Origin: Candidatus Nanopelagicales bacterium | GTDB lineage: Bacteria > Actinomycetota > Actinomycetes > S36-B12 > CAIYMF01 | Assembly: GCA_038206635.1 (NCBI GenBank) | Contig: JBBRAQ010000002.1 | Coordinates: 164,442-228,441, forward strand | Reading direction: 5' to 3' | Length of the DNA: 64,000 bases | Shown: positions 37,466-41,234 of the stretch, one piece after another | Layout: each line of letters opens with the position of its first letter | Numbering within the stretch: position 1 is the stretch's first letter | Notes under the pieces: generated by a model | Told to the model about the DNA's origin: nothing | What the model saw: the letters and a program-made list of their open reading frames with translations, nothing else | The model's database searches: none | Position numbers and translations under genes: made by a program

Positions 37466-39154
37466 TCAGGATGAGCCGGGCGACGGCGCACTCCCTGCGG
37501 ACGTGACCCTGGGCAGTGGCGCCCGAAGAGTGACGACGCCGTCCTCGACGTTCCGTGACCAGACGAGCCGGGTCGAGTCGAGCACCCGGAGCATCTCGTT
37601 GTTCTGTGCCAGCACGGTGCCGACGACCTCCTCGAAGCCGAGCCGCTCCGCCAGTACCACCATGTGCCGGACGAGCTGGGTGCCGATGCCGCGTCGCTGG
37701 TAGGCGTCCTCGACGATCACGGCAATCTCTGCCGTGTGGCCGTCCGTCGGTGAGTCCGGGAACACGTGCCCCAGGCCCACGATGGCGCCCTCCTCGCTCA
37801 TGGCGACGAGGGTTGCGCCCCGGTGCCCGCCGGTCAGGCGGCGGAGAGTGACGTCACGCCACTGCCCGACGGCGGTGAGGTAGCGCCGGTAGAGCGTCTG
37901 CTCGGAGCACCGCCCGTGCATCTCGGCGACTGCCACGGCGTCCTCGGGGCGGGCGAGGCGGATCCAGATGGTTCCGCCGGCGTTCATCGGCTCGACCCAG
38001 CCGAGAGCTTCCGCTTCGCCGGCCATGCTGGCCATCGCCGCTGCCAGACGCAGGAGCGCCGACGCTCGGGTCTTCTCGGCGCGGGCAAAGGGCGCCCAGT
38101 TTCGGTGCAGGACCACGTGCCGGTTGGCGGTCCACTGCAGCCGAAGGACGTCTGCCGCGTCGTCCTCTCCCTGCGTGGCGTCGATCACCTCGAACCGGTC
38201 GGCCTCAACGAGTGTCGCGGCGGCGAGCGGGGCCGAGCCGGGGTTGGTGACCAGCTCGGTGGCTCCGTCGAGCACCCGGGTCGGCAGGTCGCCGCCATCC
38301 TCGAGCGACCCCGCCATCACATAGCCGCTGTGTCCGACGGTCATGGCTGCCGCCAGGAGCGTCTCGGCGCCGACCTTGTCAGGAGCCATCAGCGCCAGGT
38401 CGATCGTGCGACTGCCGTGCCCGGAGTCCAGCACGTAGGCGGCGACCACATGGACGTGGAGCGTGCTCAGGGCGCTCAGCAGAAGGGACAGGCCGCCGGG
38501 CCGGTCCGGGATGTCGATGCGCAACCGCCACGGCGTCTGCGCCTCGTGGTCGGCGGACAGAAGGAATCCCACGGGTGCGAAGGCTGCGCCGATACGCGCC
38601 ATCAGCGCGTTCCAGCTGGCCTGCGTGGGCCGGCTCTCCGCCACGGGGTCGATGACCGCGAGACCCGCTGACAGTGCCAGGGCAAAATGGACGAAGGCAT
38701 CGTCGTCGATCCGGTCGTCGATGCCGCCGGCGCGCCGCGTCTGTTCGGTGACCTTCTTCAGGTTCGCCTTCCGCTTCCGGAGGCGGTCCCGCTCCAGCAC
38801 ACGAACGTCCTCATCGCTGTGGGACCTGGTGAGCGCTTCGAGCTCGACGACGTTCCAGCTGCGCTCGGGCGTCGCGAAGGTGTCACCTGCCACTTGGATC
38901 AGTACGGAGACCGGGGGTGCAGCGTCCGGATCGGCCGCCGCTGCGGCGATGCGAGCGGCGGACTCGGACGGCGGTCTCGTAGCCAGCACTTCGGCGAAGA
39001 GCTGCGCGCGGCTGCCAGTCAGCTGGCGGACCATTCGGGGCGTCACGCCGGCCCGCTCGGCCACCATGCGCACCTTGGTGCCGCCATAGCCGTTCTCCGC
39101 GAACAGGTCCGCTGCCACCTCGACGATCCGCTGCCTCAGGTCGTCGTCGGTCAC
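37466..39154 (-). CDS. TetR-ACT-GNAT fusion, putative amino-acid-sensing protein lysine acetyltransferase
   Basis: N-terminal TetR HTH; ACT (WRLRIDIPDRPGGL); Pat-type GNAT (RCSEQTLYRRY, AEIAVIVEDAYQRRGIG); GAGGAGG ribosome-binding site. Confidence 0.8.
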   Translation of the reverse strand: MTDDDLRQRIVEVAADLFAENGYGGTKVRMVAERAGVTPRMVRQLTGSRAQLFAEVLATRPPSESAARIAAAAADPDAAPPVSVLIQVAGDTFATPERSWNVVELEALTRSHSDEDVRVLERDRLRKRKANLKKVTEQTRRAGGIDDRIDDDAFVHFALALSAGLAVIDPVAESRPTQASWNALMARIGAAFAPVGFLLSADHEAQTPWRLRIDIPDRPGGLSLLLSALSTLHVHVVAAYVLDSGHGSRTIDLALMAPDKVGAETLLAAAMTVGHSGYVMAGSLEDGGDLPTRVLDGATELVTNPGSAPLAAATLVEADRFEVIDATQGEDDAADVLRLQWTANRHVVLHRNWAPFARAEKTRASALLRLAAAMASMAGEAEALGWVEPMNAGGTIWIRLARPEDAVAVAEMHGRCSEQTLYRRYLTAVGQWRDVTLRRLTGGHRGATLVAMSEEGAIVGLGHVFPDSPTDGHTAEIAVIVEDAYQRRGIGTQLVRHMVVLAERLGFEEVVGTVLAQNNEMLRVLDSTRLVWSRNVEDGVVTLRAPLPRVTSAGSAPSPGSS

Positions 39155-39398
39155 CGAGTCCTCCTCGACCGGGCGACGAGACTCTGACGCCCACAGGTTG
39201 GTCCACAACTGCCTCGTGGCACATCCGACACCCACCCGGATGAGCAGCACCACCCTAGGCGTGACGGCCCTCGATGGCGGCTCCCCGAGGCGCCCCACCC
39301 GACGCCTCACCAAGCGTCGGTGCCGTTGACCGCCTAGTGTCGAAGCGTTGGTCCCTGCTGCCGACCGTTCATTGTTGCGCCTGGGACCTGGAGGCGTG

Positions 39399-41234
39399 AT
39401 GAGCGCAACGACCATCGGAACTTCGAATCCCTCCAGCTACCCGACGCCGGCGGCGTCGGTAGGTCGGCTGTTCAACGACCGGGTTGCCGCCACTCCGTTC
39501 GCTGAGGCCTTCCGGCACCCCGTGCCCGGCGGCTGGGAGTCCGTGACGTGGGCGCAGGCCGCCGAGACGGTCTGGACCGTGGCCGCCGGGTTGCTCGCTC
39601 TGGGGATCGGGCCGCAGGAGCGCGTGGCGATCGCCTCCTCGACCCGCATCGAGTGGCTGTACGCCGACCTCGCTGTCATGTGCGCCGGGGCGGCGACGAC
39701 GTCGATCTATCCCTCGACCGGGGTGACGGACACCGGGTACATCCTCACCGACAGCGGAACACGGCTCGTCTTCGCCGAGGACGACGTCCAGATCGCCAAG
39801 CTCCGCGCGCTCCGGGACCACCTGCCCGACGTGATCCGGGTGGTCACCTTCGACGGCGAGGCGGACGGGGAGTGGGTGCTCGGCTTGGCCGATCTCCAGG
39901 CTCTTGGCGCTCACCATCTCCTCGAGCACCCCAGCGCGGTCGACGAGGCGGTGGCCGCCGTCCGGCCCGAGCACCTCGCAACCCTGATGTACACCTCGGG
40001 GACCACCGGTCGCCCCAAGGGTGTGGAGCTGCCGCACCGGTGCTGGACCTACGTCGGAGCCGGCGCCGAGGCCATCGGCATCCTCTCCATCGACGACCTG
40101 CAGTTCCTGTGGCTCCCGTTGTCGCACTCGTTCGGCAAGATGCTCGAGGCGGTACAGCTCCAGATCGGTTTCCCCACCGCCGTCGACGGACGGATGGACA
40201 AGATCGTCGAGAACCTGGCGACGGTCCGACCGACTTTCATGGCCGGCCCTCCGCGAATCTTCGAGAAGGTCCACTCCAGCGTCGTCCAGAAGATGCAGGA
40301 AACCGGTGGCGCCAAGCTCCGGCTCTTCGGCTGGGCCTTCCACGTCGGGCACCGGGTGTCAGAAGCCCGACTGGCCGGCAGGCAGCTCGGCTGGGCGTTG
40401 GGGGCACAACACGCCCTCGCCGACCGGCTGGTGCTCACGAAGGTGCGCGACCGGCTCGGCGGACGGATCCGCTTCCTGGTCTCGGGCAGCGCCGCCCTGT
40501 CGCCGGACGTCGCGACGTGGTTCCACAGCGCCGGCCTCCTGGTGCTCGAGGGCTACGGGCTCACCGAGACCAGCGCCGCGGCCTGCCTCGTGCGCCCCCG
40601 CGACCCGGCGTTCGGCGTCGTCGGCCCGCCGCTGATCGGGACGGAGGTCAGCATCGCCCCGGACGGGGAGATCCTGGTGCGGGGTCCCGGCGTGATGTCC
40701 GGCTACCACGACCTGCCCGAGGCGACGGCCGAAGCGCTGAGCGTCGACGGGTGGTTCGCCTCGGGGGACATCGGCGAGATCGACTCGACCGGGCGGCTGC
40801 GGATCACCGATCGCAAGAAGGATCTGATGAAGACCTCCGGCGGAAAGTACATCGCCCCGCAGACCATCGAGGTCATGTTCCGCGCGGTCTGCCCCCTCGC
40901 GAGCCAGATGCTGGTGCACGCAGACCGACGCAACTACGCCACGGCGCTGATCACCCTTGACCCTGATGCGCTCGCCCAGTGGGCCCGCGCCCAGGGCCTC
41001 CCGGAGACCGACTACGCGATGCTCGCAGCTGACCCCACGGTGCGCAGCTACGTGGAGTCCAGCATCGCGGAGATCAACGTCCGACTCAATCGCTGGGAGA
41101 CCATCAAGGACTTCCGAATCCTCGACCACGACCTGTCGGTGGAGGCCGACGAGCTCACGCCGAGCCTGAAGGTCAAGCGCAAGGTCGTGGAGGGCAAGTA
41201 CCAGGAACTCCTCGACTCGATGTACGCCAGGTAG
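39399..41234 (+). CDS. Long-chain fatty-acid--CoA ligase (FadD15-like AMP-binding enzyme)
   Basis: YTSGTTGRPKG, EGYGLTET, SGDIG, DRKKD, ELTPSLKVKR. Confidence 0.92.
   Translation: MSATTIGTSNPSSYPTPAASVGRLFNDRVAATPFAEAFRHPVPGGWESVTWAQAAETVWTVAAGLLALGIGPQERVAIASSTRIEWLYADLAVMCAGAATTSIYPSTGVTDTGYILTDSGTRLVFAEDDVQIAKLRALRDHLPDVIRVVTFDGEADGEWVLGLADLQALGAHHLLEHPSAVDEAVAAVRPEHLATLMYTSGTTGRPKGVELPHRCWTYVGAGAEAIGILSIDDLQFLWLPLSHSFGKMLEAVQLQIGFPTAVDGRMDKIVENLATVRPTFMAGPPRIFEKVHSSVVQKMQETGGAKLRLFGWAFHVGHRVSEARLAGRQLGWALGAQHALADRLVLTKVRDRLGGRIRFLVSGSAALSPDVATWFHSAGLLVLEGYGLTETSAAACLVRPRDPAFGVVGPPLIGTEVSIAPDGEILVRGPGVMSGYHDLPEATAEALSVDGWFASGDIGEIDSTGRLRITDRKKDLMKTSGGKYIAPQTIEVMFRAVCPLASQMLVHADRRNYATALITLDPDALAQWARAQGLPETDYAMLAADPTVRSYVESSIAEINVRLNRWETIKDFRILDHDLSVEADELTPSLKVKRKVVEGKYQELLDSMYAR

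Follow-up and report, generated by a model that had tools for sequence, protein, structure and literature searches.

A 64,000-nucleotide stretch from the assembled genome of a Candidatus Nanopelagicales bacterium of the Actinomycetota (contig JBBRAQ010000002.1, positions 164,442 to 228,441; hereafter the window) carries two divergent genes: one encodes a 562-amino-acid protein that joins a TetR module to an ACT domain, a middle domain and a Pat-type GNAT acetyltransferase (hereafter the fusion), and the other encodes an AMP-forming acyl-coenzyme A (acyl-CoA) ligase. Our results reveal that the architecture of the fusion is real, conserved and widespread in Actinomycetota, that it is homologous to AAPatA and Pat enzymes and keeps their catalytic residues, and that its gene is tightly coupled to ligase genes. 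The fusion is very probably a lysine acetyltransferase of the AAPatA type with an added TetR module, and genome context makes it likely that the protein is functionally coupled to the adjacent ligase. The explanation that best accounts for the whole, to which we give a probability of about 0.4, is that the fusion is the regulator-enzyme of the ligase in a two-gene cassette.

The open reading frame (ORF) of the fusion (37466..39154, minus strand) is intact, from a GTG start at 39154 to a TGA stop at 37466–37468. A Shine–Dalgarno sequence (GAGGAGG) lies seven bases upstream of the start, which matches the N-termini of the homologs. The translation, the ribosome-binding site and the full-length homologs thus bear out the single frame given in a preliminary description of the window. 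The structure that AlphaFold2 predicts from 46 family members (predicted local distance difference test, pLDDT, 84; predicted template-modelling score, pTM, 0.73) contains four modules (i.e. TetR, ACT, middle domain and GNAT).

A profile search against 1.84 billion representative proteins shows that stand-alone proteins of 340–375 amino acids match fusion positions ∼210–555 in one stretch (E 1e-44 to 1e-22), and Pfam assigns to these relatives an N-terminal ACT and a C-terminal GNAT domain. Because the match runs end to end and both domains are found in the relatives, the C-terminal ∼350 amino acids of the fusion constitute a complete ACT-GNAT (AAPatA/PatB) homolog. AAPatA/PatB-type enzymes (e.g. 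MaKat Micau_1670, AmiPatA and SvePatA; type III or class I-beta) share with the fusion (i) the order of an ACT domain, an intervening region of ∼110 amino acids and a Pat-type GNAT; (ii) a D-x-P-G-x-L loop in the ACT domain, the catalytic Glu and the QxxGxG motif; and (iii) a distribution restricted to Actinomycetota. By contrast, the fusion does not have the two-domain-only ACT-GNAT architecture: an N-terminal TetR module of ∼195 amino acids is extra in 44 of the 46 family members, which gives a length of 562 against ∼350 amino acids. It also differs in being known so far only from uncultured lineages, and in being linked by genome context to ACSL-type ligases or MenE, whereas the AAPatA-type enzymes were tested on the acetyl-CoA synthetase Acs. 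Acetyl-CoA synthetase is a substrate of ACT-GNAT enzymes, whose activity is raised by Cys, Asn or Arg (PMC6434083, PMC8556138). The databases name the fusion proteins 'GNAT family N-acetyltransferase' or 'AcrR family regulator / N-acyltransferase', and our literature searches, which included PMC6434083 and PMC8556138, turned up no paper on a TetR-GNAT or TetR-ACT-GNAT enzyme; a TetR-fused form was not known to the author of the preliminary description either.

The GNAT module (amino acids 386–546; 37517..37999, minus strand) is identified by Pfam families (Acetyltransf_1, -3 and -7, amino acids 397–526), by fold matches and by a partial match of the NCBIfam model 'acetyltransferase Pat', which covers the GNAT half only (70.9 bits against a cut-off of 460). 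Its best matches in both sequence and fold are the S. lividans PAT GNAT, Rv0998, MSMEG Pat and E. coli PatZ, and it superposes on the S. lividans PAT GNAT (4NXY/4U5Y) with a template-modelling score of 0.87 and a root-mean-square deviation of 2.1 Å. The motif AEIAVIVED, earlier proposed to hold the catalytic Glu, is indeed present, and its Glu476 (37727–37729, minus strand) takes the position of the catalytic Glu235 in an alignment with M. tuberculosis Pat (Rv0998), which makes Glu476 the predicted catalytic residue. The acetyl-CoA motif is Q486-R-R-G-I-G (QxxGxG), and E476, G489 and G491 are invariant in the 46 family sequences. The cAMP-dependent mycobacterial Pat (Rv0998/MSMEG_5458) and S. 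lividans PatA, which match the fusion in the GNAT and have the same catalytic Glu, follow the logic that we propose for the fusion: a sensor at the N-terminus gates a GNAT at the C-terminus, which in turn inactivates AMP-forming acyl-CoA synthetases. They differ from it in their sensors, which are a cyclic-nucleotide (cNMP)-binding or an NDP-forming acyl-CoA-synthetase-like domain in place of the TetR, ACT and middle domains.

The ACT domain (amino acids 207–281; 38312..38536, minus strand) carries the conserved loop D217-R-P-G-G-L, whose D217 and P219 are shared by all 17 homologs compared; ACT models match 11 and 14 of the 46 family members, and the stand-alone relatives match them too. The loop and these relatives support the ACT assignment of the preliminary description; in the window's own protein, the Pfam ACT model (PF01842) stays below its cut-off of 27 bits, with 19.3 bits and E=9.7e-4. 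The segment between ACT and GNAT (DLPTRVL...PFARAE) had been called a linker. It is instead the most conserved module of the protein, with the lowest entropy (RLQWT...H..L.R..PF..E..RAS.LLRL), and a fold unit of its own: the middle domain (amino acids 283–380; 38015..38308, minus strand) has the order helix-helix-strand-strand-strand-helix, its secondary-structure unit spans amino acids 284–377 of the AlphaFold2 model, and it is also present in the stand-alone ACT-GNAT relatives. No Pfam family matches it. Modelled alone (pLDDT 87), it gives weak matches to GAF-like folds (best E=0.038), and it may be a further sensor or a substrate-docking element.

The TetR module (amino acids 1–195; 38570..39154, minus strand) consists of a helix-turn-helix (HTH) and an all-helical ligand-binding/dimerization domain, as Pfam, the AlphaFold2 model and profile matches agree. 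The preliminary description had reported a full TetR with both parts, and the fold is indeed complete in the model, with ∼10 helices over amino acids 3–192. Pfam TetR_N (PF00440) matches amino acids 10–55 (38990–39127, minus strand) with 33 bits against a cut-off of 24, and 44 of the 46 members match it at E≤0.01. The family profile also matches full-length TetR structures, up to positions 1–182, while TetR_C models match few of the 46 members, and weakly. Conservation of the HTH equals that of the ACT and TetR-C parts, and its basic residues are retained; judged by this conservation, purifying selection acts on it as on the other regulatory modules. TetR regulators of fatty-acid metabolism (e.g. 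Bacillus FadR, Mce3R, PsrA and FasR), whose structures or models the fusion matches weakly, likewise combine a TetR HTH with a helical ligand domain, and their genes are divergent from a gene for fatty-acid activation or share an operon with it. The similarity lies mainly in the HTH and is below the family cut-offs; unlike these regulators, the fusion has a 360-amino-acid enzyme attached and no identified operator.

We find 569 database proteins that match the fusion, and the best 120 of the 569 are all full length, with TetR_N and GNAT. Full-length fusions occur in 52 species-level genomes, down to 37–40% identity; all 52 records are metagenome-assembled genomes (MAGs) of Actinomycetota, including Nanopelagicales, Kineosporiaceae, Jatrophihabitans, Dermatophilaceae and others. 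Within the window's order, the fusion is present in 76 of 201 sampled genomes, 61 of 145 high-quality genomes and 16 of 43 genera. That the fusion, or its adjacency to the ligase, is an assembly artefact or a chance arrangement with no function could be argued from the 64-contig MAG that contains the window and from the few relatives that are split or frameshifted. This is effectively refuted by the same full-length architecture in hundreds of independent assemblies, which also disposes of the artefact that the preliminary description had allowed for, and by linkage statistics that speak against chance (see below).

Some genomes of the order have two or three copies of the fusion. In each of ten genomes of a sister genus (G026, G081, G102, G110, G126, G130, G158, G162, G170 and G184), the fusion profile finds two or three matches, which in several genomes are separate full-length paralogous copies; this suggests a diversification of targets. 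The gene is split or frameshifted in loci L041, L047 and L048 and in genomes G110, G156, G126 and G178, with one in-frame TGA; these copies are either pseudogenes or MAG assembly errors.

We then surveyed the genomic linkage of the fusion in 53 loci, counting every AMP-binding ORF within 7 kb. An AMP-forming ligase lies within this distance in 22 of the 53 loci against ∼3.3% expected, an expectation derived from the 8 AMP-binding ligases in the 3.94 Mb of the window's genome (P=3e-19 naively; P=3e-5 on the assumption of about 20 independent clades). Gene-neighbourhood clustering of these loci finds the AMP-forming ligase to be the only recurrent neighbour, and no conserved downstream partner of the fusion is present in related loci. 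In the protein tree, each fusion–ligase arrangement marks one clade, so that there are at least five independent configurations, which involve two ACSL subfamilies plus MenE. In one clade (the window plus four loci), the ortholog ligase is divergent from the fusion. In another, it lies directly upstream and co-directional in an operon-like arrangement; in locus L012 of this clade, an 81-amino-acid remnant of the ligase C-terminus (…LKVKRRVVESRYESLFDSLY…; 6754–6999) directly upstream of the fusion is evidence of secondary partner loss. A third clade has a second ACSL-type ligase downstream of the fusion, single loci have a ligase that is convergent with or upstream of it, and one clade has a divergent acyl-CoA dehydrogenase gene. 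In the deepest clade (loci L045, L046 and L049), the fusion lies inside a menaquinone gene cluster, menF-[fusion]-menD-menC-menB...menE-menA, with the order menB-menC-menD-fusion in one direction in L049.

The two genes could also be read as a metabolic pair, in which the ligase supplies an acyl-CoA with which the GNAT N-acylates an amine (i.e. an amino acid or a protein). The operon-like arrangement in one clade would fit this reading, pairs of a ligase and an N-acyltransferase are common in biosynthesis, and the ACT domain binds amino acids. Nevertheless, we consider this very unlikely: the homologs of the GNAT, and of the entire C-terminal half, are protein acetyltransferases with ligases as their targets, the TetR and ACT modules point to regulation, and MenE makes little sense as a supplier in the men-cluster clade, which favours control of a CoA-ligase step over use of the ligase product.

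Within the window's genus, an ortholog of the cassette ligase (86–100% identity) is present in five of six fusion-bearing genomes and in none of 18 fusion-less ones (Fisher P=1.4e-4). In these five genomes, it is always adjacent to and divergent from the fusion, with a gap of ∼250 bp; in the sixth, the fusion is cut at a contig edge. All 18 fusion-less members keep a paralog of the cassette ligase with 58% identity. The genes that flank the pair vary between genomes of the genus, and from the joint presence and absence, constant adjacency and varying flanks we conclude that fusion and ligase form a two-gene accessory cassette. The synteny with fadD that the preliminary description had named as a check is therefore found both as recurrent ligase linkage across the family and as strict co-occurrence in the genus. 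TetR regulators are usually divergent from, or in an operon with, their targets.

The ligase itself (611 amino acids; 39399..41234, plus strand; AMP-binding 222 bits) is an ACSL/FadD11–15-like enzyme whose ATG start agrees with that of its orthologs; its best NCBIfam match is FadD11 (NF038343), with 388 bits against a cut-off of 950. It ends in LTPSLKVKR, with a presumed A10 catalytic lysine, Lys591 (41169–41171, plus strand), so that the head-to-head FadD-like ligase with a retained C-terminal lysine is as earlier described. The linked ACSL-type ligases all end in (L/M)TP(S/T)(L/M)K(V/I/L)(K/R)R.

In the mechanism that we propose, a complete AAPatA-type acetyltransferase (i.e. ACT, middle domain and GNAT) would have gained a complete TetR module at its N-terminus. 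The GNAT would acetylate the partner ligase with acetyl-CoA, with Glu476 as general base and presumably on the A10 residue Lys591, and this would switch off adenylation by the ligase. The ACT domain would tune the acetyltransferase through an amino acid, and the TetR pocket would probably tune activity through a lipid or acyl-CoA-like ligand. The HTH would also bind the shared 244-bp promoter region, and one protein would thereby control the ligase both transcriptionally and post-translationally, with a logic like that of BirA. BirA, a biotin ligase with a winged-helix domain, is both a protein-modifying enzyme and a repressor, and in B. subtilis the acetyltransferase gene acuA is divergent from acsA, which encodes the AMP-forming ligase that AcuA acetylates (see also PMC11255334). 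AcuA, unlike the fusion, is without a DNA-binding or ACT domain, and both cases are analogies of logic only, without homology. A sirtuin deacetylase in the window's genome (C29:10319–10927) is supporting context. We infer the acetylation target, the ligands and the DNA binding of the fusion from homology and genome context, and the parts of the proposal differ in strength: acetylation of the adjacent ligase has an even or slightly better chance, we lean somewhat towards DNA binding, and the two together, the dual control suggested in the preliminary description, are a tentative proposal at less than even odds.

Several results weigh against the cassette explanation, on the side of the target as well as on that of the DNA, in addition to the sub-threshold ACT score. 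More than half of the fusion loci have no ligase within 7 kb. Known Pat-type enzymes recognize or need the acetylation motif PX4GK (PMC11619455), which is absent from the window ligase and from the linked ACSL-type ligases; around the A10 lysine of the window ligase (E-L-T-P-S-L-K591), there is no Pro at position −6 and no Gly at −1. The window's genome encodes four other ligases with PX4GK, which are possible real substrates, and a second large Pat. The loci without a ligase and the distribution of PX4GK would fit an alternative in which the fusion is a TetR regulator of the neighbouring ligase gene while its acetyltransferase acts on other proteins (e.g. PX4GK ligases, other metabolic enzymes or DNA-associated proteins). 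For the characterized ACT-GNATs, too, Acs served as the test substrate, and what they modify physiologically is not known (PMC6434083). We give this alternative a low probability: AMP-forming ligases are linked to the fusion in several independent arrangements, one of them with the MenE of the deepest clade, which does carry PX4GK (PYLPGGK), and the strict co-occurrence in the genus is hard, though not impossible, to explain by transcriptional control alone.

On the side of the DNA, we aligned the divergent intergenic region (244 bp; 39155..39398) with four orthologous loci. Conserved blocks hold a candidate −10 element for the fusion (TAGGGT; 39252–39257, minus strand) and one for the ligase (TAGTGT; 39335–39340, plus strand); a sigma-70 consensus scan of the region found nothing, so that these promoter assignments are ones that we only infer. 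The 7-bp inverted repeat CCGACGC-N8-GCGTCGG noticed in the preliminary description is present at 39299–39320, but it is neither above chance nor conserved: comparable repeats occur in 23% of dinucleotide shuffles and in 90 of 262 tiles (244 bp each) of the window, their number matches the expectation for the window, and the right arm differs in the four closest orthologous loci (L001, L002, L003 and L034). We therefore do not take it as evidence of an operator. Inside ligase codons 15–21 lies another inverted repeat, perfect over 9 bp (CCGACGCCG-G-CGGCGTCGG; 39441–39459, plus strand), which shares heptamers with the intergenic repeat and is imperfect in the orthologs. Together, four CCGACGC/GCGTCGG heptamers fall within 170 bp, which is the window maximum; this cluster was rejected as a signal because 73 of 404 (18%) real 316-bp tiles have some 7-mer at least four times and because it is not conserved. 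Across 38–46 regions upstream of fusion or ligase, neither exact nor mismatch-tolerant searches found dyads above shuffles, the k-mers common to the divergent and operon clades are only the Shine–Dalgarno sequence and ATG, and the 5′ leader of the fusion shows no compensatory pairs of a conserved RNA structure.

The failure to find an operator in any clade is consistent with another possibility, namely that the fusion acetylates its partner ligase while the TetR module no longer binds DNA and serves as a ligand-sensing/dimerization domain that gates the GNAT. The fusion would then be a multi-input type III acetyltransferase (with TetR pocket, ACT and possibly the middle domain as inputs), comparable to mycobacterial Pat with its cNMP domain. 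The recognition-helix region is without the usual Y-x-Y/F signature of TetR proteins and varies among orthologs that are 83–88% identical, the coupling to the ligase would be explained as well as in the cassette explanation, and type III GNATs are defined by their N-terminal sensor domains (PMC8556138). Nevertheless, TetR_N scores above its Pfam cut-off and is matched by nearly all members, the HTH shows the same degree of conservation as the ligand domains and keeps its basic residues, and TetR regulators that bind DNA typically stand in a divergent or operonic position; we consider the loss of DNA binding rather improbable. As the recognition helix varies among close orthologs, operators could be clade-specific, and they may also be degenerate. 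In its most specific form, which we consider unlikely, this explanation becomes a 'writer on DNA': a promoter-bound TetR dimer with an amino-acid-gated acetyltransferase would repress the ligase gene and inactivate the ligase, integrating lipid/acyl-CoA, amino-acid and acetyl-CoA signals, and the DNA-bound fusion might also acetylate DNA-associated proteins locally.

The surroundings of the cassette contain further regulators. Directly downstream of the fusion and on the same strand is a large LAL/MalT-type LuxR regulator (34555–37491, minus strand; true start probably near 37280) with an AAA/STAND NTPase, a MalT-like TPR and a GerE HTH, which is beside the fusion in none of the related loci. 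Convergent with the ligase is a ROK-family regulator (41315–42676, minus strand), and beyond it, on the plus strand up to 45359, lie an apparent two-domain sugar ATP-binding cassette (ABC) ATPase and a permease; the ROK and sugar ABC genes (41315–45359) appear to be unrelated to the cassette. Apart from the fusion, the genome has a single Pat-type GNAT (C6:53103–53576, minus strand), which is part of a 1023-amino-acid open frame, probably a large class-I Pat.

Bacterial protein acetyltransferases are classed by the sensor that is fused to the GNAT (i.e. NDP-forming acyl-CoA-synthetase-like, cNMP, ACT or NADP-binding), and none of the described types has a DNA-binding TetR module. Should the HTH be functional, the family would physically link control of one metabolic step at the transcriptional level with its control at the post-translational level, and the cassette would offer a small, defined two-gene system for how acetylation specificity is set, including the recognition of ligases without PX4GK. 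If the 'writer on DNA' reading were true, the fusion would represent a new class of protein acetyltransferase (i.e. type III with a DNA-binding module) and a portable control unit for CoA-ligase steps, both ACSL-type and MenE. The fusion is present in about 40% of the sampled genomes of the order, whose members are Actinomycetota of soil and fresh water and mostly uncultured; what it does is therefore relevant to the lipid and menaquinone metabolism of abundant environmental bacteria.

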